From Candidatus Omnitrophota bacterium (GTDB lineage: Bacteria; Omnitrophota; Gorgyraeia; Zapsychrales; Fredricksoniimonadaceae): a DNA stretch of 64,000 nt. The position numbers and the translations under genes are program-made. The notes below the pieces were generated by a model. It was given only the letters and a program-made list of their open reading frames with translations. It did not search any database and was not told the DNA's origin. The stretch covers positions 72,492-136,491 of the forward strand of contig JADFXH010000004.1 of the NCBI GenBank assembly GCA_015233675.1, in the 5' to 3' direction. Shown here in pieces: positions 18,627-49,075 of this stretch (the first letter of the stretch is position 1; the number at the start of each line of letters is the position of its first letter).

Positions 18627-18664
18627 TGCAATGCCCTCCGAATTAATTAGTACAATTTAAAAAA

Positions 18665-20295: not shown

Positions 20296-20305
20296 GTATT
20301 AATAA

Positions 20306-23500: not shown

Positions 23501-26500
23501 AGCTCTTCATATGCCGTTGAGAGCTTTTGACGCCACTCGTTTGATTTTTCAGAACTTACATTTAATCTTATCTGGAATTCTTTTGTTTGAGGTTTCAAAA
23601 AATTCCATATTTTAGCTGTGGTATCACGGCTTGCCGTTAAAATTCGGCCGTCAGTCAGAATTTGAACTGATTCAATATCAGATGAATGCCCTACAAGGGT
23701 CGCATCAACCTGCCACTCTCTTGGGCTTGTCTCCCTCCATATTTTCGATGAACCATCAGAACTTGTCGTTAAAATCCGGCCATCGGAGAGAACTTTGGCT
23801 GCACGCCCTTCAAGCGTTGCTTCTATCTGCCATTTTCCGTTTATCTCACTTACTATCCTGACTTGGATGCCATTTTTATCTTCCATCAAAATTCGGCCAT
23901 CAGGCAGTATTTGACCTGAATACCCATCAATAATCGCTTCTACCTGCCATTCTCCCGGGCTTAACTGCCTCGAAATCATCACTTCGCTGCCATCATAACT
24001 TGCTGTCAGAATCCGGCCATCAGGAAGCATCTGAGTTGGCTGTCTAAAACCTAAACGGCCTTCAAGTTTCGCCATAGCCTCCCATTTCCCCGGGATCACC
24101 TCACTCCATATTTTCACTTGGCCGCCATCAGAATTTGCCGTCAGAATGCGGCCATCGGGCTGCATTTGGGCTTTAATCCCTTCTAGGACCGCATCTATTT
24201 CCGCATCTATTTTCCATGCCCGATCCATTTTTATCCATATCATCATTTTGCCCTGAAAACTTGTCAAAATTCGGCCATCAGACAACGCTTGGGCTGAAAC
24301 CCCGTCAAGGGTCGATTCTACCTGCCACTCTCCCGGGTTTGCCTCATGCAATATTTTCGTTTTGCCAAGAAGATCCGACATCATAATTCGGCCATCGGGC
24401 AATATTTGGGCGCCATTCCCTTCAATGCGCGCTTCCAACTGCCATTCTCCTGTTTTCTCTTCTCTCCATATTCTAGTTTTGCCATCAAGACTTGATGTCA
24501 TAATCCGGCCATTAGAGAACATTTGGGCTGACTCTACCCAAACCGGACATTTAAGGGTGGCCTCCACTTTGGGTTTTGGCTCGCCCAAATTAGTCTCATT
24601 TCGTAATAAACCCAAATTAAAACTAAGCTCTCTTAACCCGTTAGCTTCCTGAAGTACAAGCGCGTCCCTTTTGATAACACCATCCTCGACACCAAAAGGC
24701 ATAGCCAGAGACCAGAATTTCTCAATCTCACGGCCATTGACTCTCAATAAAACATAACGTGTTTTCTTTCCGGTATACCTATAAAGTATATTGGTGTTGT
24801 CTCGGGCCACGAGGGTACATCTCTTTTCTTTTTCAAAATCAGCCAGTGTATAACTTCTTATATGCTCTTCAAAAGCTATCTTTTTTGGTAAGGCACTCAT
24901 GGCTGAATCCCAAATTTTAGCAGGTTCTGTTGAAGAAGAAATCCTTCCTTCCCCTCCTAATGAGTCTAAATAATCTCCTAAATCCTTAGGTAAAGTATTA
25001 TTTAATTCCAATTTCCCTAACTTACGAAATTTATATGCAACATCCTCAGCAACTATTGGCACATCTTTGAGAATATACTCCTTAACATTAATATCCTTAT
25101 AGAAATTGCCTAATTTGGCCCTCTCTCCATCGAAATTATACTTCGGATTCATCTCTTGCGGCCCGTAAGGTTTTGTCGTTACATAACTCTTTTCATCATT
25201 CCATTCCAGGAAATCCTCCTCTGCCTTCCAATTCGTTTTCACCTTTTCTTTATCTGAAGGTTCTTCTTTAACACCAAAAGCTGCATACGCTGCGGCCTCC
25301 AATTTTACTAAATCATAACTATTGGCAGTATCCTCTTCCGCAATGATCTTTATAAGCTCCAACTTCTCTTCTTTTTTCTTGTCATCTTCAGAAAGCGTAA
25401 CGATTAAATCCCCAATCTGAGACGGGACTATTACATAGCCGTCTCCCCGTACTACCGGCAAAGGTTGTGTTTTAATTATGCGCATAATATCCTCAAAATT
25501 CCGAGCCTGATATTGCTGCCAGACTTGCGGCCTAAAGGGGACTGTCAAAATCAAATTCCTTATTTTATTGCCGGAATCTTTGTCTGTTGCTTCAAGGACC
25601 ATCGGTAACACCGAAGCCCCCAAATATTCTTTTAGTTGTTTAATTTCAGCCCCTCTCCAATCAAACAAACCCTCATTTAAGAAAACAACACTTTGCCCTT
25701 GCGGCATTTGGAAATTATCAAAACCATCTCGCAATGGCAAAATAATCGCCCCTTCCTTTCGAAGATTGCTGATGAAAGATGTCATCTCTGTTTTTACAGC
25801 ATTTTTAACTTCATTAATAATATCTGTTACTGCTTTGTTCCCGGGAGCTATCCCTTCAAGCCCGCCAATCAAAGTATTGATAATTTTAACTTTTTCTTCA
25901 TTTGAATAATCATTGTGAAGTACGAGTCTAACAAGGCTCAAAACACCCTTCTTTAAGGGCTCTTCATCCTGATTTCTCTGCAAAACGATCTTGTCCCAGG
26001 AAGGAGAAACTCTAATCAGCCTTCCCAAATCAACCATCAGCTCTCCCGCCAGAATTGACGTCTTTATTACCGGATGCAAAGTAACACGTGACATGACCCT
26101 TCCATTTCTGGCAAAAATTATCGATGGCCCCATCCCTTGGGGGTCATGCACAAGGCTTGTTTTTTGTGTTTCAGCATCAATCTCCTCGGGGGTTGTCATG
26201 ACTTTGTTTTCCTTATCTCCCCCATCGACAGGTAAAAGCATCCGCGACATAATCTGTAAATCCATTCCCTTCCCAGGATCGATAACTCTAAGAATCCTTG
26301 GCTCTAAAGACACCACAATCACCGGTTCATTCTGTCTGCTTTTAGGCTCCGGAGCATTTTCATGTTTAAGATTGGCAAGACCTGCTAAAACTTTCTTATG
26401 TTCCCAGCCATTCACAAGCCTAAATTCAGAAAAGCCAAATCGAGTCCAAATTCTGGGACCTTTAACAGGAGAAAACGCATCATGAATTTCCTGCTCCAAT

Positions 26501-28410
26501 CTTTTTAAAGTTACTCCCTCTCCGTCTTGCGGGATATCCTTGCTTTTAAACACAGCGATGACCGTGCCTTGCTGTGAAAAAAGGCCTCCTGTCGCCTTTT
26601 GGAATTCTTCTTTGGTGGATTGAAATATGGCCGCCTTAAAGCCGCCTTCCTGACGGATAATGACAAGACAATACGGAGGCTTTCCCTTTTGCCTCGAAAA
26701 AACCTCTATTCTTTCTTCTGGGTTCTCCAGCCACGCAAGAATCTGTTTAACGCCCATGCCAAATTGGCCCATTTCTCCTCCGAGAGCATCAATACTGTTG
26801 GCCACCGCTTCAAGGATCGATTCAATCTTTGAGCTCCCGCTTTGATAACCAACGGTCCTGTCTAAAGCCACGTCCGGCTGGGCATCTCCTTTTATTTTTT
26901 TAATGATCTGTTCAGAATATCCAACCTGAGCTAAATGATCATAAACCCGCGTGTAATATTCATCTAAATTTTGGGTCCCCAAGCGCTCGCCTGCCTTAAG
27001 AATTCCCAGAGAAGATAAAAGCTCCTCCAGTTCAACTCTCGATAAACTCTTCAATCGTTTTTGCGCCTGTAAAAATGGAACCAAATTGAAATAGATGACA
27101 TTTTGCGGCACAGGGACCGATTCAAAGGAAACTTTAGGAGATTGGTGATTACGATTGGTATCTTGCGCTTGCTTCCCAAAACCTTTAATGGTACTGATAA
27201 TTTCTAAAGCCCGATTCTTTAAATTTGACATATCCAGCAACATGGCACGGTCCGCCACCGTCTGTATTCTCAAATAAGACGACATAGAAAAATCGAGATT
27301 CATCCCCCCGGAAAAATATTTTCGCGGAATAGTTTCCCGGGATAAAGTGTCAGTGTCTTCTTTAATATAATTGAACACGCCTCTTTTGAAGGCTTGAAGG
27401 TAACGCAGGTAAATTGTTTCGACATTGAGTGGGAAGGAATTTTCGTACCCAACTCCTGCCACTTTATTTTTATCTGCATACACCTGGGCCAGGATACTGT
27501 CCTTGATTTTCTTTTTGTACCAAGTAGCCAAAATCAATGAATTGTAAACTTGACGGAGTTTAGCAAAATTTTTGTCTTCGTTGACTTCCTTGGTCAATTC
27601 AGGGAGGACTATTTCCCGGACAATTTGAGCGCCTAAAGCGTTGATATCCTTGTTGATTGGCAAACGGTTTGTTCCCTGGGATGCTTTCAATTGCAACCCT
27701 CCATTGGTTGGCATTTGGTGCTTCTCAAGCGAAAGATAATCCTGCTCAAGCATGACTTTTAACTTCGATTCAACCACGTATGCCGTCCCTGCCTTGGCAT
27801 TCTCATAAACAACAGCCTTGTCAGGAATGATCCAAACTTTATTAAATGTGTTGACCGAAATATTGGTATTGCCGTACTTCTTGGCCGCCTGCTCATACAC
27901 CCGCCTCCAAAATCTTTTACCTACTTTATCTTCCGGATAAATTAAACTGGCTGTTATCTGCTTGAGCATATAATCTTCTGCTAAGAGATCTCTACCCATT
28001 TCCGTTAAGCCAAAACTATTAGGGATAATCCTGTCTTTCTCATAAGGAGAAAGGTTAACCCATAAATCTTTTTCCGGAATGGTAAGGCTGGCTAAAAAAT
28101 ATTTGATTAATCGGGTGGCTTCGGTTCGTAATTCTTGGTCGTCGTTGGGTTTGTTCTTCTGGGTTGCTTTCTCATTCAATGGTTCATTGGTTGGCGTATC
28201 CCCTCTGTCCAAAATAAAATCAAAACGGAAAGGGTTGTCGGTATGAAATTTAATGCCTTTTAAAATAGGAGGATCAAGCGGCGGACTTAAATGGACCATT
28301 ACCCCGGGCGCAGGCAGACGATATTCCTGGGCCTGAGCCATAGGCAGCGGCCCAAATGTATTTAACAAAAAAGCTGTCAAAATAGCTATATGAAGACATG
28401 GGGCTCTCAT
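20503..28410 (-). CDS. Giant (about 2,635-aa) signal-peptide-bearing mosaic protein: conserved N-module, degenerate GHKL-like module, WD40-like 8-blade array, canonical GHKL/Hsp90-like ATPase motifs, HExxH motif, conserved C-module
   Basis: Uninterrupted 7.9-kb ORF. The tracked start at 28425 is GTG; the ATG at 28410 gives MRAPCLHIAILTAFLLNTFGPLPMAQA|QE, a textbook Sec signal. Neither start has an SD. Motifs are located in the findings. Confidence 0.85.
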   Translation of the reverse strand: MRAPCLHIAILTAFLLNTFGPLPMAQAQEYRLPAPGVMVHLSPPLDPPILKGIKFHTDNPFRFDFILDRGDTPTNEPLNEKATQKNKPNDDQELRTEATRLIKYFLASLTIPEKDLWVNLSPYEKDRIIPNSFGLTEMGRDLLAEDYMLKQITASLIYPEDKVGKRFWRRVYEQAAKKYGNTNISVNTFNKVWIIPDKAVVYENAKAGTAYVVESKLKVMLEQDYLSLEKHQMPTNGGLQLKASQGTNRLPINKDINALGAQIVREIVLPELTKEVNEDKNFAKLRQVYNSLILATWYKKKIKDSILAQVYADKNKVAGVGYENSFPLNVETIYLRYLQAFKRGVFNYIKEDTDTLSRETIPRKYFSGGMNLDFSMSSYLRIQTVADRAMLLDMSNLKNRALEIISTIKGFGKQAQDTNRNHQSPKVSFESVPVPQNVIYFNLVPFLQAQKRLKSLSRVELEELLSSLGILKAGERLGTQNLDEYYTRVYDHLAQVGYSEQIIKKIKGDAQPDVALDRTVGYQSGSSKIESILEAVANSIDALGGEMGQFGMGVKQILAWLENPEERIEVFSRQKGKPPYCLVIIRQEGGFKAAIFQSTKEEFQKATGGLFSQQGTVIAVFKSKDIPQDGEGVTLKRLEQEIHDAFSPVKGPRIWTRFGFSEFRLVNGWEHKKVLAGLANLKHENAPEPKSRQNEPVIVVSLEPRILRVIDPGKGMDLQIMSRMLLPVDGGDKENKVMTTPEEIDAETQKTSLVHDPQGMGPSIIFARNGRVMSRVTLHPVIKTSILAGELMVDLGRLIRVSPSWDKIVLQRNQDEEPLKKGVLSLVRLVLHNDYSNEEKVKIINTLIGGLEGIAPGNKAVTDIINEVKNAVKTEMTSFISNLRKEGAIILPLRDGFDNFQMPQGQSVVFLNEGLFDWRGAEIKQLKEYLGASVLPMVLEATDKDSGNKIRNLILTVPFRPQVWQQYQARNFEDIMRIIKTQPLPVVRGDGYVIVPSQIGDLIVTLSEDDKKKEEKLELIKIIAEEDTANSYDLVKLEAAAYAAFGVKEEPSDKEKVKTNWKAEEDFLEWNDEKSYVTTKPYGPQEMNPKYNFDGERAKLGNFYKDINVKEYILKDVPIVAEDVAYKFRKLGKLELNNTLPKDLGDYLDSLGGEGRISSSTEPAKIWDSAMSALPKKIAFEEHIRSYTLADFEKEKRCTLVARDNTNILYRYTGKKTRYVLLRVNGREIEKFWSLAMPFGVEDGVIKRDALVLQEANGLRELSFNLGLLRNETNLGEPKPKVEATLKCPVWVESAQMFSNGRIMTSSLDGKTRIWREEKTGEWQLEARIEGNGAQILPDGRIMMSDLLGKTKILHEANPGEWQVESTLDGVSAQALSDGRILTSFQGKMMIWIKMDRAWKIDAEIDAVLEGIKAQMQPDGRILTANSDGGQVKIWSEVIPGKWEAMAKLEGRLGFRQPTQMLPDGRILTASYDGSEVMISRQLSPGEWQVEAIIDGYSGQILPDGRILMEDKNGIQVRIVSEINGKWQIEATLEGRAAKVLSDGRILTTSSDGSSKIWRETSPREWQVDATLVGHSSDIESVQILTDGRILTASRDTTAKIWNFLKPQTKEFQIRLNVSSEKSNEWRQKLSTAYEELIKFVPEDTLQINRSDYEDSFNFFYGLLRQRMEQVIEGKTSAESQLSSIDALVDDVAKTLHEIDKGLKDFWPEFFEENILSLQSHEREDFYHRFFKTLLQAAVVDGINTREDINDIIKIMAYGWSLDSPASIESAKAVYQLIESFKSKNMKDYPLLSKIVCSIQLTLRNKEVSAKNNLINQVNRIMNSEASEHYLELIFDTFKGTAWKVIEKAVAKDDFQSLGRLGSLLVFLTTKTDLVAEDVKTEDQEIEWQNIGEGIWLDQLDVWNSSAENGVRSVEDISLEHDRIASLNGEAVERIRQNIRSKIEGLRESGGYAAELAQNYLDAMVLARQKNPKRKGNMRVKFYFDPVEKEFVEEAQDNGSGAPNGQELALLIRKSNKYDLNTGQKGLMGMLAGFFGTGKFTQYAGVDSVEIVSRGERRVYSFVVEVDRTQGRPKLIKLGWRDRNAEEQTGFMIRRNKKASTIIPELEQMFAESAWKINAGFAVTDQDELELEINNQVRPVRVTGKDVLFQGAFYAPNLSSPDAAHDVLIEHGVFRIWEHHDPEIPSQIIDKKGLRVEDIALKEKFLALVPQRIRRIVDKMGIAIQIPLALYESRNGFAQEEEYLPFIQKYIALGIYRAMMSKHLSDESFTIDRIISSDFESKSSYNAAFNKNRNPLFVDGRHMFDIVNGINNELDQPQVASVSNKELETLRAWFDGEVSGLQKNSIKQFLALLEVDFNNEKGVKERGSLVLRRIKTLMQVSPRLASALAAATGRSMENANSMSDEHAIQREVMAETLKIIDITPIDDWIISPETDSEKQLLQIGLEFGKIFGIDDVLLAKSDAPFRGLFSDNRFLLNQSLAEGVSSAGGFSQKVETIVHELGHLLQIAKQSGSKVEKIVTRQDEGFNGWTHDDEFSQMMKWASFFILSKLSGTITPKKDSAMLKIEKGGIDLTAANMNLQTQNNGGEIKFHLDPAMLRQLQNAPGFVPVIINIQPMMDLRQFLGLNVQERVPAAS
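23599..24537 (-). repeat. Intragenic array of eight ~39-aa WD40-like units inside the giant ORF
   Basis: Eight protein-level repeats of (Q)xLxDGRILTxSxDGxxKIWxxxxPGEWQxEAxLxG. The DNA core AT(T/C)CGGCCATC recurs every 115-130 nt. Confidence 0.8.
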
Positions 28411-28543
28411 ATTACAAGTATGCACTATATATAATCTAAAAACAATGGGGACAGAGCGTTTTTGAGAAAGCGCTTCCTGAGATATTTCCGTCGATACGAA
28501 AAAATAAAGGTGATGGAATAATTTTTAATTGCCGGACTTGTCC

Positions 28544-29359: not shown

Positions 29360-30280
29360 TTAAGGCTGCTGACTTCTGTGAGTCTCCGATGTGCGGGCCG
29401 AAGCATGCTTGATCGTCCTCATCAATGCGGGATCTACAGCGTATCCTAATGCCGCGGCCTTCTGCAAATCATCCAAAGCTTTAGCATATTGTTTTAACTG
29501 ATAATAGACAACAGCCCGGTCATTATAGGCCTGCGCAATCTTAGGGTTCATTTCAATGGCAACGGTAAAATCAAATCTGGCTTGATCGAAATCATCCAGC
29601 TCAACATAAGCTTCCCCCCGATTGGCATAAGCCTCTGCGAAATTCGGGTTTAATTTAATAGCTTTACTAAAATCATTGATAGCATCAATGAACTTGTTCT
29701 GCCTATCATAAATGGTGCCGCGATTATAATATGCTTCTGCAAGTTTAGGAGCTAATTCGATACTCTTATCTAAATCTGCCATGGCTTGGGTTAAATTACC
29801 TACCTTGTACCAGGAAAGCCCCCGGTTGTGATAACTTTCTGCATATTCAGGATTTATTTTAATAGCTTCGGTAAAATCGAAAATAGCTTGAACTTCATTG
29901 CCTTGATTGGCATAACTAAAGCCGCGATTGTAATAGACACTGGCATCCCGGGGATTTAATTCAATGACCTTGTTATAATCAGCGATAGCTTGTGTAAAAT
30001 TATTCTGGCCGGCATAGGCATTGCCGCGATTATAATAGCCCTGCTCATCTTGAGGATTTATTTTAATCGTTTGAGTAAAATCTAAAATGGCTTTGGTGAA
30101 ATTTCCTTCTTTTTCAAATAGAATGCCGCGATCGTAATAAGCATCCGCAGAATTAGGATTGATCGCAATGGCCCTGTTTAAATCTTCTATGCTCGCGGGA
30201 TGATTATCAGCATAGACAACACCCAAAAAAAAGCCGAAAAAAAAAGCTGCCCCCAATAAAATAAACCGAAGAATCCTCAT
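29360..30280 (-). CDS. Secreted or membrane-anchored tetratricopeptide-repeat protein (about 8 TPR units)
   Basis: The ATG at 30280 forms an ATGA overlap with the OMF stop. N-terminal hydrophobic helix, then tandem 34-aa units of the form A.AYYNRG....G....AI.DF..AI.LNP. Confidence 0.8.
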   Translation of the reverse strand: MRILRFILLGAAFFFGFFLGVVYADNHPASIEDLNRAIAINPNSADAYYDRGILFEKEGNFTKAILDFTQTIKINPQDEQGYYNRGNAYAGQNNFTQAIADYNKVIELNPRDASVYYNRGFSYANQGNEVQAIFDFTEAIKINPEYAESYHNRGLSWYKVGNLTQAMADLDKSIELAPKLAEAYYNRGTIYDRQNKFIDAINDFSKAIKLNPNFAEAYANRGEAYVELDDFDQARFDFTVAIEMNPKIAQAYNDRAVVYYQLKQYAKALDDLQKAAALGYAVDPALMRTIKHASARTSETHRSQQP

Positions 30281-31779
30281 TGCTTGGAACTTGTCCATCC
30301 TCCACCTAAGTATTGAATAAGCAGCACACAAGCATTCATGCGTTCACCAAGAATAGTTACGGCAGTTCTTTCATTAGTTAATGCAGTCGCTTGAGTGTTA
30401 ATGACATCCAACGCGCTTACTGTCCCTGCCTTATACTGATTAGTTTCGAGCATTACGGCTTTCTGGGAATCCTTCAGCGCCTTATCCTGCACCTGTGCTT
30501 CTTGCGCCAATATACGAAGCGCAGCCAAATTATCTTCGACTTGTCCAAATGCTGTCAGCACCGTCTGACGGTATATTGCCACATCCGTATCGTACACGGC
30601 CCTGGCCTGAGCTGTCTGTGCTTTTCTTAAACCAGCGTCAAATAGGGTTCCTGCCAATGCCGGCCCCAGTGACCACAGCGGATTTGGGGAAGAAAATATA
30701 CGGGATAAATCCGAACTTTCATAACTGCCTGAGGATCCCAAGGTCAATGTTGGGAAATATGCGGATTCGGCTACGCCAATTTGGGCATTGGCCGACGCGA
30801 CTGCCCTTTCAGCGGCGGAAATGTCAGGCCTGCGTTCAAGAATTTCCGACGGGATACCGGCAGGAATGATGGGGACCGTGGTTGTTAGCGTCAGAGAAGC
30901 AATAGAAAAAACCGACGCAGGTTTACCGATGAGAACCGCGATCGCGTGTTCTAACTGGGAACGCTGTACGCTGATATCAATTGACTGAGCTTCAATCATT
31001 TCAAGCTGGGTTTGCGCTTGAATAACATCTATTTCTGCGGCAACACCACTGGCATAGCGATTTTTGGTAAGGCCTAGAAACTTTTGGTAAATAGTTTCCG
31101 AATCGTCCAGAAGCTTTTTTTGCGTATCCAAAGAACAAATCTGGAAATAATCTTGTGCTAATTCAGCTTGTGCGCTTAAACGGGCATTTTCAAGATCTGC
31201 GGCGCTCGCCTGGGCGCCGGCACGGCTCGATTCAACTGTCCTACGGATTCTACCCCACAAGTCTATTGCCCAGGAAACATCGCCATTTAATAAATTGCTG
31301 GAAACAGCATTCTTTGATGATGCGTTTTTTGATCGCGTATAAGAACCTGCAGCGCTCAAAGTTGGGAAAAAACCCGCGCGGGCCGCTTGCAGAGCCGCGC
31401 GCGCTTGGCTGTATTGAGCTTCAGCTGCCGCAATATTCTGATTTGAAATATTCAGTTGTCCTTCCAGCGCGTCTAATTTAGGGTCATTAAAAATTTTCCA
31501 CCACTCTCCTCTGATGGCATCATCTTGAGGATGAGCTATTTCCCAATCTGCTGATTCCTTATAAACCTTTGGGATCAGAGTTGTCGGCTTAACATACTTA
31601 GGGCCCACCGCACAGCCGGTTAGTAAAATAAGTAAGCATGATATAAAAATTAGGCCCCCCTCTTTTTTATAAAGAGGGGCAAGGGGGAGCTCTCTTGGGA
31701 TGATTTCAACTCCCCCTATCCCCCTCTTTAAAAGAAAGAGGGGGAAATTACTTAAAACAATTGTTCTTAGACTAAACAT
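30277..31779 (-). CDS. RND efflux outer-membrane factor lipoprotein (NodT family); start uncertain
   Basis: Lipobox LLTG|CAVGPKY, then the duplicated OMF repeat pattern. No in-frame ATG/GTG/TTG exists between the palindromes (31655-31744) and the lipobox. The first plausible start after the mdtC stop is the ATG at 31779. Confidence 0.8.
   Translation of the reverse strand: MFSLRTIVLSNFPLFLLKRGIGGVEIIPRELPLAPLYKKEGGLIFISCLLILLTGCAVGPKYVKPTTLIPKVYKESADWEIAHPQDDAIRGEWWKIFNDPKLDALEGQLNISNQNIAAAEAQYSQARAALQAARAGFFPTLSAAGSYTRSKNASSKNAVSSNLLNGDVSWAIDLWGRIRRTVESSRAGAQASAADLENARLSAQAELAQDYFQICSLDTQKKLLDDSETIYQKFLGLTKNRYASGVAAEIDVIQAQTQLEMIEAQSIDISVQRSQLEHAIAVLIGKPASVFSIASLTLTTTVPIIPAGIPSEILERRPDISAAERAVASANAQIGVAESAYFPTLTLGSSGSYESSDLSRIFSSPNPLWSLGPALAGTLFDAGLRKAQTAQARAVYDTDVAIYRQTVLTAFGQVEDNLAALRILAQEAQVQDKALKDSQKAVMLETNQYKAGTVSALDVINTQATALTNERTAVTILGERMNACVLLIQYLGGGWTSSKQ
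31655..31744. repeat. Two G/C-capped palindromes (CCCCTCTTT...AAAGAGGGG) inside the 5' end of the OMF reading frame
   Basis: 31655-31680 CCCCCCTCTTTTTTATAAAGAGGGGC and 31720-31744 CCCCCTCTTTAAAAGAAAGAGGGGG. Each can form a 9-10 bp hairpin. Confidence 0.8.
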
Positions 31780-31804
31780 GACATTGCCTTTCTTTTCAAA
31801 ACTA

Positions 31805-34800
31805 TTAATATCCTGCATTGTTCCCATAAAAAAGAGCCACTCGTTTAGACTTCTTAAAATATGTCTTCCAAATATAATACCAGCAAATGGGACTAATCAG
31901 CAGCCCCAAAACTGTTTGTAACAGATGAGCAGAAAAAAATGAATACTCAAGTATCACAAAAATAAAAAATGCCGCAATCGCAACACCTATCACTTGTGTC
32001 ATTAAATTAACTATTATGTTGGGCGTCATTGAATTTTTATTCTTATACGCCTTTATCATTTGAACAAATAAATAGATGTAAATAATACGTACTAAAATAA
32101 AGGAACATAGTGTTATTAAATCATTCAACCCAACTGATTTAAAAAGACAAATTAATAAAAAAGCTGCGCCAGCCACTATTGACCAAATTAAACCCGACCA
32201 TAAAGCTACATAATAGAAAGCCAACCAACCTCCATTCCTCAACCATTCCATAAAAAGATACACAGCCGGCGTGGTGTATAAAGTCAGCATTTGGCTGAAG
32301 ATAAGCCCGCCGATAATAGCAATACCCAACGGACGGCGCAGTTCAGAACCCATGCCCCAACCTAAGGCCAGCGGCAATGCTCCTAATATCGCCGACATGG
32401 TTGTCATCATAATGGGACGGAATCTCAAAAGACACGCCTCATAGATCGAGTCACGCGAGTTTTTCCCTTCCAAACGTTCGGCGTCAAGAGCAAAGTCCAC
32501 CATCAGAATACCATTTTTCTTGACCAGCCCGATCAAAAGTATAATCCCGATGATCGCAATGATGCTTAATTCTGTATGCGTGATAGCAAGTGCCAGCAGT
32601 GCCCCCACTCCAGCGGACGGCAAAGTCGAAAGAATGGTGATCGGATGGATATAACTTTCATACAGAATACCCAGCACAATATAAACCGCTCCCAGCGCCG
32701 TAAGGATCAAGATTCCCTCGTTGCTTAAGGAAGACTGAAATGCCTGGGCCGTACCCTGAAAACTGCCATGAATAGTCACAGGTAATAATATATTTTTCAT
32801 CGCTGAATTAACGGCCTTGACTGCATCCCCTAAAGCTACTCCCACGGGTAAATTAAACGAAAATGTGATCGCTGGAAATTGGCCTTGATGGGCGACGGCT
32901 AAAGATGTGGTCGTTGATTCATAATGGGCAAACGCGCTTAAAGGGACCAAGGCTCCCGTTGATGACTTCACATAGATATACTTCAATGTTTCAGGACGCT
33001 GCCAAAATTTTGGAGCAACTTCCATGATGACATAGTACTGATTTAATTGCTTATAAGTTGTTGACACTTCCCGCTGGCCAAAGGCATCATAAAGGGTGCT
33101 ATCTATTTCCTGGGCGGTTATCCCCATTCGTGCCGCAGTCTTGCGGTCAATCACCAAGTCGGTCTCCTGCCCTTTGTTTTGCCTATCACTGTTTAAATCG
33201 GTTATTTGAGGGAGCTTGCGCAACTGGTCTTCCACGCGCGGTGCCCATGTCAAGAGATCAGCCAAATGGTCCGCCTGAAGCGTATATTGATATTGGGCAT
33301 TACTCATTCGCCCACCCACCGTCAAGTCCTGCACGGAAGAAAGAAACGCAGGCGCACCCGGCACACTGCTAAGCTTTTTTCGCAGGCGGGCGATCACTTG
33401 GTCACTCGTGGCCTTGCGCACTTCTAAGGGCTTAAGGGCAATAAACATCCGCGCCGTGTTCCTGGTGGAACCGCCACCCGTAAAAGCAGCCAACGTATCC
33501 ACGGCAGGATCTTTCAAAACGATCTTAACCACCGCCTTTAATTTCTTTTCCATCGATTGAAATGATATGTCTTGAGAAGCCTGAATATTCCCGCTTAAAC
33601 GCCCTGTGTCTTGCTGAGGGAAAAATCCTTTGGGAACGATCGTAAACATAATAATGCTGGTTACAAGAGCGGCCAACGTCAAAATCAACATAAAACCCTG
33701 ATGCCGCAAGGTCCAGGACAAACTCTTTTCATAACTGTGGTGCATCCACTTAAACACTCCTTCAGAAGCGTTAAACAGCCGGCCATGGGGTTCTTCTTTC
33801 TTAGATTTTAAAAGAAAAGCACACATCATTGGAGTTGTCGTCAATGAAACTACCATGGAGATCAAAATGGCGACCGAAAGTGTCAGGGCAAACTCACGGA
33901 ACAAACGCCCCAAAACCCCTCCCATCAATAATATGGGAATAAATACCGCAACTAAGGAAACACTCATCGTAAGAATAGTAAAACCAATCTCTTGGGCCCC
34001 CTTAATAGCTGCATCTTTAGGGCTCATGCCTTTTTCAATATAACGTGTAATGTTTTCCACCACCACAATCGCGTCATCAACAACAAATCCGGTGGCGACT
34101 GTCAGTGCCATTAAGGAAAGATTATCCAAACTAAAATGCAAAAGGAACATGACCCCAAAAGTACTGATGATCGATACCGGGACCACAATACTGGGAATTA
34201 TGGTGGACCGTATATTACGCAAAAAGAGGAACACCACTAAAATCACCAGTATCCCTGAAATCACCACCGTTCGTTGAGCTTCTTTCATTGAAGCACGGAT
34301 CGTCGGTGAACGGTCCAGAACAACAGCCAGCTTGATTGCCGGAGGGATAGAGGCCTGAAGGCGCGGAAGTAAACTCAGGACAGCATCAACTGTTTTGATG
34401 ACATTGGCCCCCGGCTGACGAAATAATATCACCGGTATACCTTGCTTGCCGTTGATGAGGGCCGCATTACGAAGGTCGGCCACCGAATCCTGTACATCAG
34501 CCACATCTGATAACCGGACGGCCCGGCCGTTTGAGTAAGCGACGATAAGAGAACGGTACTCTTGGGCCGTATAGAGTTGATCATTAGTTTGGATTTCCCA
34601 GGTCTTCTTGCCATTACTCAGCTGTCCTTTGGGACGGTCCGCGTTAGTACTGCTGATGGCGGTGCGCACGACGTCCATGCCTATCCCATATTTATTTAAA
34701 GCCGTGGGATTAAGCTCCACCCGAACAGCTCTGGAAGCGCCTCCCCCGATAATGACTTGGCCAATGCCTTCTACCTGGGATAATTTTTGGGCTAAAATGC

Positions 34801-35278
34801 TGTCTGCTATATCGTAGATATCCGCTTTAGTCACGATATCAGATGTCAGGGATAAAATAAGGATAGGCGACTCGGATGGATTGACCTTACGGTAGGATGG
34901 ATGGATCGGAAGGTCCGCCGGCAGAAAACTTTGGGCGGCATTGATCGCCGCTTGAACATCACGGGCCGCCCCGTTAATATCACGGTTTAAATCAAACTGT
35001 AAAGTAATTCCCGTACTGCCAAGGCCGCTGCTGGAGGTCATTTCAGTAACACCGGCAATATGGGCTAGTTGACGCTCCAGCGGAGCCGCGACGGAACTAG
35101 CCATGGTTTCAGGGCTTGCACCGGGCAGGGATGCTCCGACGCTAATGGTGGGGAAATCCATCTGCGGCAAGGTAGATACCGGCAACAAACCCACGGCGAC
35201 CAGGCCGGCTAAAACTATACCCACTGTCAATAAAGTGGTGGCTATAGGCCTTCGGATAAATGGTGTTGAGATGCTCAT
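31805..35278 (-). CDS. mdtC: RND permease MdtC homolog with an extra ~140-aa C-terminal membrane extension
   Basis: Strong similarity over its whole length to E. coli MdtC as I remember it (PLERQL...[35 protein letters not shown]). The homologous part ends near ...[15 protein letters not shown] (about residue 1015), yet the ORF continues to residue 1157. Confidence 0.9.
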
Positions 35279-38200
35279 TTTGAATTACCTAAACCGAGGC
35301 GTTTGCCCAACCGGTCAAACCACAGATAAATGACCGGAGTCGTGTAAAGAGTGAGCACTTGACTGAAAATAAGACCGCCAATAATGGTAATGCCCAAAGG
35401 TTGTCTTAGCTCAGCTCCCATTCCCCCGCCAAAAGCTAAAGGCACAGCTCCCAATATTGCCGACATGGTCGTCATCATGATTGGCCTAAACCGCAAAAGA
35501 CACGCCTGGTAAATGGCATCCACGGGAGGTTTACCTTCCCCGCGCTCGGCATCCAAAGCAAAGTCCACCATCATGATGCCGTTTTTCTTGACGATGCCGA
35601 TCAACAAAATAATCCCAATCAAGGCGATAACACTCAAATCCGCACGGAAGATCAAAAGAGACAGTATGGCCCCCACACCCGCCGATGGCAGCGTCGATAA
35701 AATGGTAATGGGATGGATGTAACTTTCATATAAAACACCCAGCACTATATACACCGTGATTAAGGCGGCCAGAATCAAAAGCGGCTCGTTGGTCAAAGAT
35801 GATTGAAAAGCCTGGGCCGTGCCCTGGAATTCACCGTTAATACTGCCGGGCAATCCCATTTTTTTCGTGGTCGTCTGAATCGCCTTGACCGCCTCTCCCA
35901 GCGATGCTCCGGCTGCCAGATTAAATGATAATGTTACTGACGGGAACTGTCCCAAGTGGCTTACAATGAGAGGTCCAGTCGTTTCCTTAACCTTAGTGAT
36001 CACGTCAAGCGGCACCTGTGCACTATTGCTGCCGCGAACATAAAGATTGTGTAATTTATCAGGATTATTCTTGAAATCAGGTTTTACTTCAAGGATAACC
36101 CGATACTGGTTTAACTGAGTAAATATCGTCGACACTATCCGCTGGCCATAAGCACTATAAAGAGTATTATCAACAACAGCCGGGGATACGCCAAGCCTTG
36201 AGGCGGTTGCGCGGTCAATGACGATGGATGCCTGCAACCCTTTGTCCTGTTGGTCGCTGCCGACGTCAACCAATTGGGGCAGACGGCTTAGGGCATCCAC
36301 AACCTTCGGCGCCCAGGCATTGAGTTCGTCGGCATTAGGATCTTCCAGGGTATACTGATATTGTGTACGGCTGACCGTATCATCAACAGTCAGGTCCTGA
36401 ACCGGCTGCATGTACAGTGTTACCCCTTTAACATCCGTTAATTTTTTCTGCAAACGGCGGATAATATCGCTGGCAGAAATTTTACGCTCTTCGATGGGCT
36501 TGAGATTGATCAGGATCCTGCCGCTATTAAGGGTGGTATTAGTGCCGTCCACTCCGATAAACGTGGAAAGATTCTCAACAGCGGGGTCTTTAAGGATAAC
36601 CGCTGCCAACTGCTGCTGCTTTTGTGCCATAGCCGGGAAAGAGATTGACTGAGAAGCCTCGGAAATGCCCTGGATAATACCGGTGTCCTGGATAGGAAAA
36701 AATCCTTTAGGAATAAAAACATACAATACTACCGTAAAAACCAGTGTTCCCGCAGCTATGCCCAAGGTCAACCCTTGACGCTTCAATACCCATTGCAAGG
36801 ATTGACCGTATAACTTAATGACCTTATTAAACATTGCTTCAGACGCATGGTAAAACTTCCCTTGTTGACTAGGCGGTTTGTTTTTGAGTAATTTAGCGCA
36901 CATCATTGGCGTCAAAGTCAGCGACACAATCGCTGAAATAACAATGGTGACGCCAAGAGTAATGGCAAATTCGCGAAACAGCCTCCCTACCACATCCCCC
37001 ATAAACAATAATGGAATAAGCACCGCGATAAGGGAAATACTCAAAGAAAGGATGGTGAATGCCACTTGCCCTGAACCTTTAAGGGCGGCTTCGAGAGGGG
37101 CATCACCTTGTTCAATATATCTGGAAATATTTTCAATCATCACAATCGCGTCATCAACCACAAAACCCGTCGCTATAGTCAACGCCATCAAAGACAAATT
37201 ATTAAGGCTGAAGCCCAGCAGATACATGACGCCAAAAGTCCCGACTAACGATACCGGGACCGCGATGCTGGGAATGATCGTCGAGGCCAAAGTACGCAAA
37301 AACAGGAACATGACCATCACCACAAGGGCCACAGATAACATCAATTCAAACTGAACGTCCTTGACCGAGGAACGGATGGTTGTAGTCCTATCTGTCAATA
37401 TGGATACCTGCACAGATGCGGGCAGGGAATTTTCTAACTGCGGCAGCATCTTTTTAATTCCGTCAACAACCTGAATGACATTAAATCCGGGCTGTCGTTG
37501 AATATTAATAATCACCGCAGGTGACGTGCTCATCCAGGCCGCCTGCTTGACATTTTCTGCGTCGTCAATGATTTGGGCGACATCAGATAATAATACCGGG
37601 GCCCCATTTTGGAATGCAACAACTAAGGAACGGTAATCTCTGCTTGATTTAAGCTGGTCATTAGCGTTGATGATGGAAGACTGACGCGTCCCATCAAAAC
37701 TACCCTTGGCTTGATTGACATTGGCACTGGAGATAGCCGTACGCAAATCTTCCAATGTCAAACCATAAGACGCCAATGCCGTCGGATTAGCTTGGATGCG
37801 CACAGCGGGCCGTTGTCCACCGCTGATGCTGACTAAGCCAACCCCTGATAGCTGAGAGATTTTTTGGGCCAGTCGGGTATCTGCCAGGTCTTCAACCTGC
37901 GGCAAAGGCAGAATTTTTGAAGTCAAAGCCAAAGTCAAGATCGGAGCGTCCGCCGGGTTGACCTTGCTGTAAACCGGAGGGCTGGGGAGGTCCGCCGGCA
38001 ATAAATTGGCACCTGCATTAACAGCCGCTTGCACTTCCTGTTCGGCTATGTCAATGCTTAAATCCAAACTAAATTGCAAAGTGATAACTGAACTGCCGCC
38101 GGAGGAAGTCGAACGCATTTGCTTAAGACCGGGCATTTGCCCAAACTGACGTTCCAGGGGAGCGGTAATGGCTGTCGTCATGACTTCAGGAGAAGCTCCG

Positions 38201-38379
38201 GGATAAAAAGTAACCACTTGAATGACAGGGTAATCAACCTGCGGTAAAGCTGAGATGGGAAGTTGAAAATAAGAGACACCGCCGGCTAAAAGAATAGCAA
38301 CCATCAACAAGACAGTTGCCACCGGCCGCATAATAAATATGCGGGAAGGATTCAATGTTCCGTGTTCCTTTGGGGTCAT
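35275..38379 (-). CDS. mdtB: RND permease MdtB homolog
   Basis: 1034 aa. [22 protein letters not shown]...[27 protein letters not shown] is almost colinear with E. coli MdtB. ATGA overlap with mdtC. Confidence 0.92.
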
Positions 38380-38388: not shown

Positions 38389-39582
38389 TTATTGCGAAGG
38401 GTTTATCGATTTCACGCGATGATTATGCCCGGCCACGGTGACCTTGCTGCCTTCTTTTAATTTGTCGGCCCCTTCCACCACCACGACGTCACCCGCCGAC
38501 AATCCATCCTTGATTGCCACGTTGTCTTCCTGGGCGCTCCCTAACGTAACCGGTCGCACTGTGACGGTCTGGTTGTCTTTGACCAGAAAAACAAATGATC
38601 CTTGAGGCCCCTGCTGGATCGCGGCCACCGGAATAATTACAACCCCTTGATCAACATTGACCAATAAATGAATGTTAACGAACTGGTTGGGGAACAAGGC
38701 ATTATCGGTATTCTCAAAAACAGCCTTGAGCTTGACCGTCCCTGTGGCGGGATCGATTTGGCTGTCAACAGCAAGCAGTAAACCCGTCGCTATTTTCTTT
38801 GTTTCCTCACGATTATAAGCATCCGTTTGCAATTTGTCGCCCTTTTTAAGTTTCTCGAGCACCTGCGGAAGACTGTCCTCAGGAATAGCAAAAACGACAG
38901 TAATAGGCTGCAATTTGGTGATCACCGCCAATCCGGTTGCATCGTTTGTCGAGACAATATTCCCGGAATCCTCCAGACGCAGCCCTATTTGTCCGCTGAT
39001 CGGAGCCGTAACACGCGCGTAGGTCAACTGCAATTTAGCATTGTTGACCTGGGCCTCATCTACCCCCACTGTCCCTTCATACTGATGCACCAAAGCGTTC
39101 TGGGTATCCAGTTGTTGTTTTGGGATGGAATCCTGGGTCCACAAGACCTGGTAACGCGCCAAGTTTAATTTAGCATCATCAAGCAACGCCTGATCATGAG
39201 CCAGTTGTCCTTGCGCTAAGGCTTGCTGTATCTTAAATGGCCGATTATCAATTTCCGCTAATAAATCACCCTGCTTGACAATTTGACCTTCTTTGAACAA
39301 CACTTTCATCAACTGCCCGCCAACAAGATACTTGACCGTGACCGTGTTAAAAGCGCTGACAGATCCCAAAGCGTTAATATAGTTGTTAATATCACCTTTT
39401 TTTGCCTTCGCTGTAACAATAGGCGAGTCGCTGGGCATACGAGCACTTGATTTGCCCCAGTTCTGCTTGCCACTTTGAGATGGATTGTCGGATACTTGGG
39501 ATTGCTTAGGCAAGAATTTATAAATACCAAAAACTGCCAGACAGATGATCAATAAAAACCATATCCATTTCCCGGAAGCCAT
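38389..39582 (-). CDS. mdtA: RND membrane fusion protein (MdtA-like)
   Basis: N-terminal TM anchor, then barrel-sandwich, hairpin and beta-barrel blocks typical of HlyD/MFP proteins. The ATG at 39582 has a GAAGGGA SD; the tracked start at 39612 is GTG. Confidence 0.85.
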
Positions 39583-39624
39583 AATTATCCCTTCGGAATT
39601 AATACTCTTCACAAACGTTTTTTA

Positions 39625-40077: not shown

Positions 40078-40641
40078 TTACTCCTTGGAGTCAGGATCAT
40101 TGTCTTCATCCGGTTTATCACCCCAATGCTTATGAACTTCCCTATCTTTGCCAAATCCGTCCTTATGCCCAAATTTATCATGCCCCATATGCATCATCAA
40201 TTCTTTTTCCCTTTTCAAAGCCATATATCCCGCGTATTGCTCAGGCGTCAAAATCTTCTTGATATCCAAAATAGAATTTAAACGGTTATCAACCATCTGT
40301 GCTTGAATAGTTTTCAGCTTGTTTTGTAGATCGTTGACCTTATTCATATCTGATGTGGCCTTAACGATTTCTACATTAAACGCTTCTCTGTTAGACTTGA
40401 TCTGTTCAAAAATATTTTTCATCAATTCTTTTTCTTTTTGCTTGTTATCTTTTAATTGCTTTGCTTGATCATCGGTAAGATTAAGAACCTGGGCCATCAT
40501 ATGCTCCTGCTGACAATGATGACAGTCGCCATCCTGATGTGTAGATTTTGGATCACCTTTGTCATTATCCGCGTATAGCATAGGAACAGATAAAGCCATT
40601 AAAGCCATCACTAATCCTGCGATTTTTAATTTTGCTGCCAT
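40078..40641 (-). CDS. Spy/CpxP/ZraP-family periplasmic protein with His-rich N- and C-terminal segments
   Basis: The ATG at 40641 follows AGGGGGGG. Signal peptide, two LTxxQ motifs (LTDDQ, LTPEQ), His clusters HQDGDCHHCQQEH and HMGHDKFGHKDGFGKDREVHKH. Confidence 0.75.
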   Translation of the reverse strand: MAAKLKIAGLVMALMALSVPMLYADNDKGDPKSTHQDGDCHHCQQEHMMAQVLNLTDDQAKQLKDNKQKEKELMKNIFEQIKSNREAFNVEIVKATSDMNKVNDLQNKLKTIQAQMVDNRLNSILDIKKILTPEQYAGYMALKREKELMMHMGHDKFGHKDGFGKDREVHKHWGDKPDEDNDPDSKE

Positions 40642-40744
40642 ATTCCCCCCCTGTTTTAGTTGCTTTAGAATTCGCCTTTTCATTTATTTAGACAATAAAT
40701 AAATGAAAAAAGTTCCTCTTTAAGAAATAAAGCAACTGTCCCTT

Positions 40745-42142
40745 TTATTTAAATTGCCAGCCGCCACCGAGGACTTTGTATAGATCAACTAAAGCACGCA
40801 GTTCACTCAGTCGGGCTTGAGCTAACCCAAGTTGGGCAGAAAAATATCTCGTATTGCTATCCAATACCTCAAGGTAGCTGGATGAACCTCCTTTGTAACG
40901 CAATTCAGACAATCGTAGAGCGTCCGAGGCCGCTTGAGTCAATAGCTCCTGTTGCGTTCTAAATTCCTGATCCTTGCGATATGCTATCAAGGAGTCAGAT
41001 ACTTCTCTAAATGCCTGCTGAATGGTCTTCTGATAAAAATGCAGAGCTTCTTGCTGTTGGGCCTGGGCAAATTTAACACCAGCCCGAATCCGTCCGGCAT
41101 TAAAAATCGGCTGTGTGAGCGTTGAAGCAATATCCCACATTCCACTCGGCCCCGTAAAAAGTTTACTCAGAGCGGCACTTTGATACCCTCCGCTCGCGGT
41201 AAGGCTAATATCAGGGAAATACGCGCCTTGAGCCACACCAATCTGCGCGTTAAAAGCAACCAATTGCTGCTCGGCTTCTTGGATATCAGGCCTACGTAAT
41301 AGCAGTGATGAAGGGATTCCTGCAGGAACCACAGGCGCATGCGGCTGTTGAATTAATGACCATCCACGCTCAATACTTCCCGGGTTGTTCCCCAAAAGAA
41401 TACTGATCAAATTTTCCTGTTGTTGGATTCTGCGTTGAAGGTCAGGAATATTTTCGGCTGCGGTGAATACTAATTGCTCTGCCTGACGCACATCTAACAT
41501 CGAGGATGAGCCATGGTCAGCCAGATGTTTGATCAACTTTAAGAATTCCTGCCTGGAGGCCAGGGTTCGCTTTGAGATTTCTAATTCAATATCCAGCTCA
41601 CGAAGCTGAAAATAAGAATTTGCCACATCCGCAATTAAGGTGGCGATCACCTCCAGACGGGCCCACTGGCTGGCCAACAAGTTGGCCTTTGAAGCTTCTA
41701 TCATCCGACGGTACTTTCCCCAAAAATCAAGATCCCACGCGAAGGAACCTTCGATAAGATAGGCCCCCCATGCATACGGATTTGTGGTACGGATTTTTTC
41801 ATAACGTTGACCGTTGGGACCAGCTACTGCGGTAATTGTCGGATACTGATAACTGCCGGAAATATTTAACTGTGCCTGCGCTTCAAGCACATGATCCGCG
41901 GCAATTCGCAAGTCATAATTTTGATCCAAAGCCATACGGATCAAATTTTGTAATTTTTTATCTTGAAAAACTTCCCACCATTTCTGTTCTCCCAGTGATG
42001 CCATTTGATTTAATTCTAATTCTTCCTTTGTCATTCCACGATAGGTAGCAGGAATTGTAACGTCCGGCTTCTTATAATTAGGGCCGATGGCACAGCCGGC
42101 CAATAATCCGCACAATAAAGCAGGAACAATCCTTCTATGCAT
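40745..42142 (-). CDS. RND efflux outer-membrane factor lipoprotein (second system)
   Basis: The ATG at 42142 lies one nt after the RND stop. Lipobox LLAG|CAIGPNY. NodT/OprM-like repeat structure. Confidence 0.85.
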   Translation of the reverse strand: MHRRIVPALLCGLLAGCAIGPNYKKPDVTIPATYRGMTKEELELNQMASLGEQKWWEVFQDKKLQNLIRMALDQNYDLRIAADHVLEAQAQLNISGSYQYPTITAVAGPNGQRYEKIRTTNPYAWGAYLIEGSFAWDLDFWGKYRRMIEASKANLLASQWARLEVIATLIADVANSYFQLRELDIELEISKRTLASRQEFLKLIKHLADHGSSSMLDVRQAEQLVFTAAENIPDLQRRIQQQENLISILLGNNPGSIERGWSLIQQPHAPVVPAGIPSSLLLRRPDIQEAEQQLVAFNAQIGVAQGAYFPDISLTASGGYQSAALSKLFTGPSGMWDIASTLTQPIFNAGRIRAGVKFAQAQQQEALHFYQKTIQQAFREVSDSLIAYRKDQEFRTQQELLTQAASDALRLSELRYKGGSSSYLEVLDSNTRYFSAQLGLAQARLSELRALVDLYKVLGGGWQFK

Positions 42143-42143
42143 T

Positions 42144-45100: not shown

Positions 45101-45266
45101 TAATCGCATCTGCTCCCGTGTAGGACGTGCTGACAAAAATTTGCGGAGGGACAATCTGTGGGAATTGAGCTAGAGGCAATCCCTGTATTGCAACGAGGCC
45201 GGCGATCACAGTCAAAATAGCGATGACCATGGCCACAATAGGACGGTTTATAAAAAATTTTGACAT
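42144..45266 (-). CDS. RND multidrug efflux permease (AcrB/HAE1-like)
   Basis: 1040 aa. MSKFFINRPIVAMV start, 12-TM layout with two large periplasmic loops, conserved [10 protein letters not shown] and LSAKNAILIVEFA blocks. Confidence 0.92.
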   Translation of the reverse strand: MSKFFINRPIVAMVIAILTVIAGLVAIQGLPLAQFPQIVPPQIFVSTSYTGADAITIEQSVATPLEQSMNGVENMLYMQSTNANDGTLSEAITFSVDSDPNIDQVNVQNRLAQAAPNFPPDVNRFGLSFRKSTGFPMMIISLFSPHRTYKSLFLANYSNININDVLYRVPGVGEVRIFGAGDYTMRIWLKPKVLAKLGLTVSDVVSAVSEQNTVNPAGQVGSEPAPKGKEKTYTVRAQGRLVTSKEFGEVVLRSNPDGSFVRLKDVARIELGALNYQQIGRFNGQPSCNIAVFQTPGSNAIQVAAGIKKALARLKGRFPADLDYKVALDTTLPVTEGIREILITLVIAMCLVTLVVFLFLQNWRATLIPMIAVPVSLIGTFAFFPFLHFSINTLSLFGLVLAIGLVVDDAIVVVEAIERHIGEGMSPREAAFKAMEEVSGPVIGIALVLSSVFIPVALMSGIQGSLNKQFALTVAISVLISAFNALSLSPALASLLLRHRQKSSGFAARFFDGFNLWFKKVTQGYGRWSLGVVRKAFIGMIFLGGFAVLDGVMGVKIPTGFLPNEDYGFCFLNLQLPSASSLERTDLVARKIEGILGQTPGIQYYTSISGFSLLTRVSASYNGFFFVTLSPWDERKSRQLQIQSIINSINKKLAAEVPEARAFVGLPPAIPGLGTSGGFSFWLQDKSGGSIEFLDQNVKKFLAACKKRPELAGVTSGFSATVPQVYADVDRDKVLKQGVDIGSVYQTLQAYLGGLYVNQFNRFGRQWKVLLQAEGEDRMNTESINQFYVRNNNQGMVPLSSLVTIKKIFGTEYTNRFNLYRAAQILGSAAPGYSSGQALAALEQVARETLPLNMGYDYSDLSFQEKTVAGTAGPVFALSIVVVFLILAALYESWSLPFSVLLSVPIAIFGAFAGLFMRHFDLNIYSQIGLIMLIGLSAKNAILIVEFAKMEHEKGRDTIEAALEGAKLRLRPILMTSFAFILGCLPLWFAKGSGSVARQVLGTVVIAGMLTATMIAIFIIPALFVITERFAKKKLPQGGK

Positions 45267-45279
45267 GATTGATTGCCTC

Positions 45280-46404: not shown

Positions 46405-46448
46405 TATTCCCTCTTTTTTCGTCATTCCCGTTAAAGCTGGAATTTATT

Positions 46449-49017: not shown

Positions 49018-49075
49018 TTTATCATCCTCTCTTTTAATAAATATTCCCCCTTGAGCTAAATCCCCAAATCGTCTA

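Follow-up and report, generated by a model that had tools for sequence, protein, structure and literature searches.

A DUF2569-like four-helix module fused in frame to the MdtC-like permease of an Omnitrophota efflux operon

The efflux operon and its second permease

The window analysed here is a stretch of 64,000 nucleotides of Candidatus Omnitrophota DNA, and all coordinates of open reading frames (ORFs) are positions in it. On its minus strand lies an efflux operon, in which a periplasmic adaptor (a membrane-fusion protein, MdtA/MuxA-like, 38389..39612, with Pfam HlyD_D23, HlyD_3 and Biotin_lipoyl_2 matches) is followed by two permeases of the resistance-nodulation-division (RND) type and by an outer-membrane factor (OMF) lipoprotein gene (30277..31779, Pfam OEP). 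The first permease is MdtB/MuxB-like, has 1034 aa and a normal C-terminus (35275..38379, ACR_tran over residues 12–1021). The second one, MdtC/MuxC-like, is the subject of this work: its ORF (31805..35278, minus strand) encodes 1157 aa, in which residues 1–1015 (32234..35278) form the RND core, and residues 1016–1157 (31808..32233) a fused four-helix module related to DUF2569 proteins, recognized by phmmer, alignment, AlphaFold2 (AF2) and GC content at third codon positions (GC3). Reading out the codons, tandem stops, TAA TAG (31802..31807), close the fusion ORF. Between them and the OMF start, a relic of the native mdtC 3′ end (31780..31801), recognized by DNA alignment with three related loci (L001, L002 and L003), now constitutes the spacer and ribosome-binding site (RBS) region of the OMF gene. 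The encoded protein is identical to the deposited MBF0571080.1 (P0001 below), which comes from a Candidatus Omnitrophota metagenome-assembled genome (MAG), on a 216-kb contig, and is alone in its protein cluster.

The core itself is canonical. Pfam ACR_tran covers residues 5–1010 of the fusion protein, i.e. positions 3–1020 of the 1021 of the model, with 1071.9 bits, and all matches to the NCBIfam models MdtC, MdtB/MuxB and RND_permease_2 stop at residues 1011–1015, RND homology ending at residue 1015 (YLFMEWLRN). With a score of 1271.4, for a cutoff of 1250, against RND_permease_2 (NF033617), the protein belongs to the HAE-1 type RND permeases. The MdtC equivalog (NF007905) is the best-scoring model, but its 1405.3 bits are below the cutoff of 1774, so that the second permease, while MdtC/MuxC-like, does not qualify as an MdtC ortholog by NCBI's definition. 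Its position, behind an adaptor and a paralogous MdtB-type permease and before the OMF gene, is that of MdtC. The motifs VVDDAIV (399), VKKNGI (919) and RFRPI (952) are present, which we take, by analogy with AcrB, to hold the proton-relay residues (DD of transmembrane helix (TM) 4, K of TM10 and R of TM11). Compared to the genes of the closest relatives with recovered loci (P0003, P0004 and P0005, 87–89% identical to the core), the ratio of non-synonymous to synonymous divergence (dN/dS) is ∼0.07, for a synonymous divergence dS>1. The core is clearly maintained, under purifying selection. An RND permease is expected to have twelve TM helices and to end soon past TM12: here, four additional hydrophobic helices follow.

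Reading frame and composition of the C-terminal extension

A preliminary description of this DNA, made from the letters alone, had noted that about 140 codons stayed open after the end of MdtC homology, that they were more AT-rich than the core, and that they encoded four TM helices. All three points were confirmed, and the position given was almost exactly right: the extension consists of 142 codons past residue 1015 (32233..31808) without any internal stop, and the other five frames contain 8 to 20 stops each across it. The chance of finding 125 open codons in random sequence of 31% GC was estimated at about 4×10−5, meaning that the frame is not open by chance. The MdtB-like paralogue does terminate soon after the equivalent point, as had been said, although 13 residues past it and not about 20.

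The GC content is 0.32 in the extension versus 0.48 in the core. At third codon positions the difference is larger, with a GC3 of 0.294 (0.29–0.30) for the extension and 0.51 for the core. This is more than an amino-acid effect, since the core's own TM segments have a GC3 of 0.46–0.54. The extension is 3.6 standard deviations under the mean of the 47 other ORFs of the window (0.446±0.042), only 41 of 12200 sliding windows of 142 codons have a GC3 as low, and the lowest-GC stretch of 400 nt in the whole window falls in this region. Codon choice follows the same trend: ATC is used for 1 of 18 Ile, and GCC for none of 12 Ala. The composition of synonymous sites marks the extension as foreign. It is not a copy of a repeat or mobile element of the window, as blastn and tblastn against the rest of the 64,000 nt gave nothing significant. 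No terminal inverted repeats were found around the insert, and in an Rfam scan of 31400–32400 no family reached its gathering score.

Low GC3 values are also met elsewhere in the window. The next-lowest ORF encodes 176 aa without a Pfam match (48583–49113, minus strand, GC3 0.322, sliding minimum 0.268). A giant ORF of 2640 aa (20503–28425, minus strand), with a single recognisable WD40 repeat (residues ∼1575–1608), includes low-GC3 stretches as well (minimum 0.296 over 142 codons).

Homologs, fold and topology of the module

The extension was compared by phmmer, in an exhaustive search, with 1.84 billion cluster representatives (a 50%-identity library, E≤10−3). This yielded 55 homologs, mostly free-standing proteins of 147–165 aa, whose alignment with the extension begins at about their residue 9 and reaches their end. 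The top match (P0121, 151 aa) is 41% identical, with E=2.6×10−17, positions 4–143 of the query facing its positions 9–150. In an alignment of 26 sequences, extension included, 23 match the Pfam family DUF2569 (PF10754), with a best E of 3.2×10−9. Taken alone, the extension spans positions 5–139 of the 143 of the profile with 19.9–20.0 bits (E about 10−3), under the gathering threshold of 26.5, meaning that the module represents a divergent DUF2569 sub-family. Its homology to family members is significant and full-length, by phmmer, by the alignment and by a leave-one-out hidden Markov model, where its 107.6 bits fall between the family extremes of 73 and 159.

The alignment displays two conserved motifs, M.KPLD.FGGWL.FF at the N-terminus and another one at the C-terminus. 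The extension starts with GGWLAFYY, bears the C-terminal motif, and keeps every invariant column. It is devoid of the first ∼8 residues of the family, that is the M.KPLD.F segment with its initiator Met, so it is not a stand-alone gene of ∼150 aa with its own start: the module opens at GGWL, right behind N1015. The module is an almost complete, 5′-truncated copy of a free-standing DUF2569-family gene of ∼150 aa. The full-length homologs and the conserved motifs rule out a de novo ORF arisen from AT-rich DNA.

Other searches were less productive. A word-indexed protein search with the extension alone returned nothing, and with the family profile 18 matches; as neither retrieved P0001 itself, these are weak negatives. 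No relative of the extension alone was found in GTDB genomes and JGI metagenomes, and Foldseek and profile searches of the PDB revealed no solved relative, but only generic helix bundles or matches due to TM bias.

Four hydrophobic helices are seen in the Kyte-Doolittle hydropathy profile of the extension. With the 26-sequence alignment as input, AF2 predicts a four-helix bundle (extension residues 5–34, 39–67, 73–98 and 105–131) and a short C-terminal helix, with a predicted local distance difference test (pLDDT) score of 91.1 and a predicted template modelling (pTM) score of 0.84. The N-side, loop 2 and the C-tail together hold 9 Lys and Arg residues, and loops 1 and 3 hold 1 (family means 8.8 and 1.5); the positive-inside rule accordingly predicts a four-TM topology with both ends in the cytoplasm (N-in/C-in). 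In AcrB-type structures, the C-terminus of RND permeases lies in the cytoplasm past TM12. The module can therefore be appended to an RND permease without inverting anything, and the linker between TM12 and the bundle is reduced to about EWLRNGG (∼6 residues).

Midway through TM2, a charged or polar side chain (D, E, R or H) occurs in 17 of the 26 sequences of the alignment; in the extension it is R52 (residue 1064 of the protein). This position may be a functional site of the DUF2569-like family.

The junction and the related loci

The comparison set for the RND protein consisted of the 120 best-scoring relatives listed, 68–89% identical where scored. None of them carries the C-terminal module, which is thus not a common feature of orthologs. 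Their lengths are 975–1054 aa, save three entries that are MdtB-MdtC read-throughs or fusions. Two of these (P0031 and P0115) were considered as C-terminal extensions, but the alignment shows them to be read-throughs of MdtB into MdtC; the source of the third calls it MdtB/MuxB.

At four related loci (L001–L004), the final codons of mdtC overlap the ATG of the OMF gene, and no gene lies in between. The protein ends with RK.[IVL]PCSA and the stop codon in 5 of the 7 relatives that were read out, two of the three closest (P0004 and P0005) and three more distant ones (P0006, P0009 and P0011). Aligned with L001, L002 and L003, the window DNA runs parallel to them as far as ATGGAATGGTTGAGGAAT (MEWLRN). 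The match resumes past the stop codons, at GAAAGGCAATGTCATGTTTAGT, which corresponds to the native 3′-end relic and the OMF start at 31779; the relic aligns with the relatives' CGAAAGGCTATTCC(ATG). The insert thus delimited is ∼427 nt long, is made of the DUF2569 coding sequence from GGWL to the stop, and stands in place of ∼18 nt of native sequence; GAATGGTTGAGGAATGGAGGTTGGTTGGCTT spans one of its two junctions. At the mdtC junction, MdtC homology abuts DUF2569 homology with zero spacer, no RBS and no start codon.

Two readings of this junction could be discarded. A stop codon lost between two adjacent genes is incompatible with relatives that have no intervening gene and with a junction that has neither spacer nor start. 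As the two homologies abut in this way, and as the module is minus its own first ∼8 residues, a miscalled stop or indel at this place cannot yield two normal genes, so the simple lost stop or frameshift that had been envisaged from the start is excluded as an explanation. We also considered that the last ∼20 residues of the module might be the native MdtC C-terminus, but they match the motif conserved at the C-terminus of the free-standing proteins. The resemblance between the end of the module and the relatives' IWFESVRKNYQRKA is coincidental, or at most microhomology.

One might still suspect an artefact, either a fragment of some other AT-rich genome misplaced in the operon or a true stop miscalled. 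The protein is known from a single metagenome-assembled contig and is a singleton, its composition changes sharply relative to the flanks, and the extension has no match in the GTDB genomes or JGI metagenomes. Yet the sequences on either side of the insert are collinear with the relatives' locus, so that a chimeric assembly would need two precise mis-joins 427 nt apart, in a contig of 216 kb. The family match stays in one frame over the whole module, leaving no hidden frameshift, and even if a stop had been miscalled at the junction, the start codon, RBS spacer and first ∼8 residues of the module would still be missing. We therefore consider an artefact improbable.

A different question is whether the module is also, or mainly, made alone by internal initiation, the locus then consisting of two overlapping in-frame genes. 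Candidate starts would be the TTG of GGWL and the conserved ATG of FMEWL. The first is in frame and is preceded, 4 nt upstream, by GGAGG (in codons AAT GGA GGT), and the second would give a product of 148 aa, a typical length for the family. But GGAGG simply reflects the codons used for the conserved Gly-Gly, and its distance of 4 nt is short, while no Shine-Dalgarno-like sequence precedes the ATG. Moreover, ribosomes on mdtC meet no stop codon and must continue into the module, so that the fusion is made in any case. This makes internal initiation very improbable as an account of the locus.

The same alignments bear on the age of the arrangement. A small gene, or the fusion itself, might once have stood behind mdtC and have disappeared from every relative sampled. 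Nothing speaks for this directly, apart from the long branch leading to the core (dS>1 from the nearest relatives). Against it stand more than 100 relatives at 68–89% identity without the module, the RK.[IVL]PCSA ending shared by five of seven, which in the recovered loci is the very overlap of mdtC with the OMF gene, the relic of this ending that remains downstream of the insert, and the foreign composition of the latter. An ancestral arrangement is, to us, scarcely credible.

No RND genes beside free-standing homologs at 18 loci

For signs of a link between the module and pumps, we looked at 18 loci with free-standing homologs, three of them encoding contigs (L005–L007) and the others coming from scans of GTDB and JGI with the motif YFKKSKRV and a 7-sequence alignment (L008–L022). 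Within the recovered flanks, which extend up to 4–8 kb per side and are much shorter on several contigs, no RND gene was found at any of the 18 loci, one of which belongs to another Omnitrophota MAG. The neighbours are not the same at all loci, and include pilus, obg and proBA genes, a ribonucleotide reductase with an intein, and a gene for protein F of a type II secretion system. Longer members of the DUF2569 family carry fused TPR, TM2, MORN or Zn-ribbon domains, and none has an RND protein as fusion partner.

No second RND-DUF2569 fusion was found among the phmmer representatives or in the profile search. This is suggestive rather than conclusive, because representatives can mask fusions behind RND proteins devoid of tail, and P0001 itself is not a representative. 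Two proteins of more than 1100 aa from the extension search (P0167 and P0173) were examined as possible RND fusions and are not RND proteins. Likewise, the 1014-aa neighbour of P0122 at L006, considered at first as an RND pump, is the ribonucleotide reductase mentioned above (L006:2–3046), split by a LAGLIDADG intein. At L022 (101–516, JGI Ga0172381_10163546), the halves of a DUF2569-like gene are in different frames, due to a sequencing error or because it is a pseudogene.

The literature searched contained nothing on RND-DUF2569 fusions and essentially nothing on the function of DUF2569 or YdgK, ydgK being listed in an overexpression screen for HOCl resistance (PMC8228696). DUF2569 was named in one further text, in an unrelated context.

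These data allow us to weigh the possibility that the module is a selected accessory domain, that is, a DUF2569 bundle acting as a functional covalent partner of the pump. It would pack on the RND TM domain and modulate pump assembly or stability, the lipid environment or the preference for substrates, as a fused counterpart of AcrZ, the small protein that binds AcrAB-TolC and modulates its substrate specificity (PMC12648545). Such small membrane proteins thus provide a precedent, and several features of the module point the same way: its ORF and invariant residues are intact, its leave-one-out score is inside the family range, the junction falls cleanly at a domain boundary between compatible topologies, and the polar or charged residue in mid-TM2, present in many members and in the window, hints at an activity of its own. 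Yet the fusion is unique, being absent from the 120 relatives of the comparison set with no other RND-length homolog detected; not one of the 18 free-standing loci is beside RND genes; the unameliorated GC3 of 0.29 suggests a newcomer; and the prior chance of landing in frame and in the same orientation is ∼1 in 6, for which selection is not needed. Altogether, a selected domain seems unlikely.

A second insertion in the OMF start region

The OMF gene most likely starts at the ATG at 31779 (MFSLRT), which aligns with the OMF start of the relatives, and its lipobox, LLTGC, is at ∼31626–31612. Between the two, in the signal-peptide region, lies a palindromic element of ∼90 nt (31654..31745, no strand assigned), in which two CCCCCTCTTT…AAAGAGGGG hairpins form one long stem. 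It is an inverted repeat with 32-nt arms, detected by three pattern matches at two sites when 0 were expected, and is the sole copy in the window. The fold of 161 nt containing it has an energy of −62 kcal/mol (z = −4.9) and is terminator-like, with a T-run behind. The element is in frame and stop-free, and lengthens the n-region of the signal peptide by ∼37 residues. It is missing in L002 and L003. At the same OMF site, L001 contains another palindromic repeat (L001:4290–4420, JGI Ga0182030_10079961, GTCATTGCGAGGAGCGAAGCGACGAAGCAATC… / …ATTGCTTCGCT…GCTCGCAATGAC), which also leaves the frame open. The OMF start thus appears to be a hot spot for the insertion of small palindromes. The element of the window recalls palindromes known to enter coding genes in frame, such as the RPEs of Rickettsia. 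That a second lineage-specific insertion, unrelated to the module, sits at the same gene junction suggests that this junction is permissive or insertion-prone, rather than purposefully arranged.

Other features around the operon

The OMF gene is followed by a gene for a TPR-repeat protein (29360–30331, minus strand), and a gene of ∼292–295 aa is likewise found downstream of the OMF gene in L002 and L003. One DUF2569-family member from elsewhere (P0124) is fused to TPR repeats; its likeness to this neighbour is probably a coincidence.

Just upstream of the operon is a second RND operon, with a single permease (40078–46425, minus strand). It comprises an ORF in adaptor position (45280–46425) and one in OMF position (40745–42178), both assigned by position only, a 1040-aa permease (42144–45266, ACR_tran), and an LTXXQ/CpxP-like periplasmic protein (40078–40683). 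Also on the minus strand, the window contains a bacterial class A RNase P RNA (151.6 bits) and two adjacent tRNA genes (18657–19035 and 20222–20379, respectively); an ORF at 18966–19421 overlaps the 5′ part of the RNase P RNA.

Discussion

Given the family of the module, its junction, its absence from relatives, its foreign composition, and the purifying selection acting on the core, the explanation we favour, with some reserve, is a lineage-specific, in-frame capture of a 5′-truncated foreign DUF2569 gene at the 3′ end of mdtC, the module being probably a tolerated passenger. The preliminary description had already proposed that a foreign small membrane gene had been captured or fused, and the free-standing DUF2569 homologs, the relatives without tail and the outlying GC3 all support it. 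The fusion, real at the level of sequence though seen once, is probably an evolutionary accident rather than a new pump mechanism.

The events could have been as follows. In an Omnitrophota lineage, some 427 nt of foreign AT-rich DNA would have entered an MdtABC/MuxABC-OpmB-type operon, within the final ∼20 codons of its second permease gene. The incoming DNA would have been the gene of a DUF2569-family (YdgK-like) four-helix inner-membrane protein, minus its start and its first ∼8 codons. Because the insert shares the orientation and frame of mdtC, a single polypeptide of 1157 aa is encoded, and we infer that it is translated as one protein. The product would consist of the complete 12-TM RND core, a cytoplasmic turn of ∼6 residues and the four-helix bundle. 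Such a chimera would plausibly be inserted in the membrane with 16 TM helices, and its pump core should still work. The module would then be a passenger tethered beside TM12, and no evolved regulator. Its composition has not yet drifted to that of the host, which suggests that the insertion is fairly recent. Given the prior of ∼1 in 6 for orientation and frame, the short and ill-conserved C-terminus of RND permeases and the matching topologies, a neutral, tolerated chimera is entirely plausible.

Several points weigh against this explanation. The module is stop-free and unshifted, with all the family-invariant residues intact, which is what selection for a functional fused domain would give. 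The insert is made of coding sequence only and joined at a domain boundary, which is somewhat unexpected for a random illegitimate event. With a dS>1 for the core, the date of the insertion is unconstrained, and it need not be recent. Finally, the fusion is known as one sequence from one MAG contig, and other fusions may be missed, as representatives at 50% identity were searched and the word search missed P0001 itself.

The operon resembles MdtABC of E. coli and MuxABC-OpmB of P. aeruginosa by its adaptor-RND-RND-OMF order and by a second permease that is closest to the MdtC model; it differs by the 142 extra residues and four more TM helices at the C-terminus of this permease. E. coli MdtBC is said, after Kim, Nagore and Nikaido in 2010, to work as a B2C heterotrimer. 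If this holds here, each pump trimer would contain one fused module, as there is one MdtC-type subunit in B2C. With the DUF2569 proteins (PF10754, YdgK type of E. coli), the module shares a near end-to-end alignment, the GGWL and C-terminal motifs, four predicted TM helices and an N-in/C-in charge pattern, whereas it is sub-threshold in Pfam, lacks the M.KPLD.F segment and start, and is fused to a large transporter.

AcrZ offers an analogy only, as another small hydrophobic membrane element beside an RND permease. It has 49 aa and a single helix, and is separately encoded and co-regulated. The module counts 142 residues in four helices, is joined covalently to the permease and has no sequence relationship to AcrZ; it is not a short, separate single-TM protein. 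AcrZ gave no match in the Pfam and NCBIfam scans of the fusion protein, and the 18 loci revealed no genomic association of DUF2569-like homologs with pumps. Another comparison is TMD0 of the ABCC/TAP-type ABC transporters, likewise a helical bundle added to a transporter core that is complete by itself. TMD0-type Pfam matches, faint or precomputed, occur in two DUF2569-like family members (P0166, E=0.0034; P0177, PF24358). TMD0 is however N-terminal, conserved in large clades and has known interaction roles; the module, as far as sequence searches tell, is C-terminal and confined to one genome. We know of no RND permease described with a fused four-helix accessory bundle, be it in the literature searched or otherwise.

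For the present, the practical importance of the fusion is modest: it is known from a single uncultured bacterium, and nothing indicates that it has been selected. There is a small chance that it represents a natural "Rosetta stone", i.e. that DUF2569/YdgK proteins are partners of RND or other large transporters, made visible here as a covalent 16-TM subunit. If so, a bundle with a charge in mid-membrane would tune the assembly or activity of a heterotrimeric pump, and the fusion would provide the first functional clue for DUF2569 as well as the first case of an RND permease with an accessory TM domain of its own. A chimera that is expressed and functional would mean that an RND permease tolerates, or exploits, a whole bundle welded to TM12, which would bear on how AcrZ-like partners engage these pumps and on engineering pumps with tags or tethers. 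It would also show, caught in the act, how a polytopic membrane protein gains a domain from a captured, truncated foreign gene, where matching topology makes the product viable.

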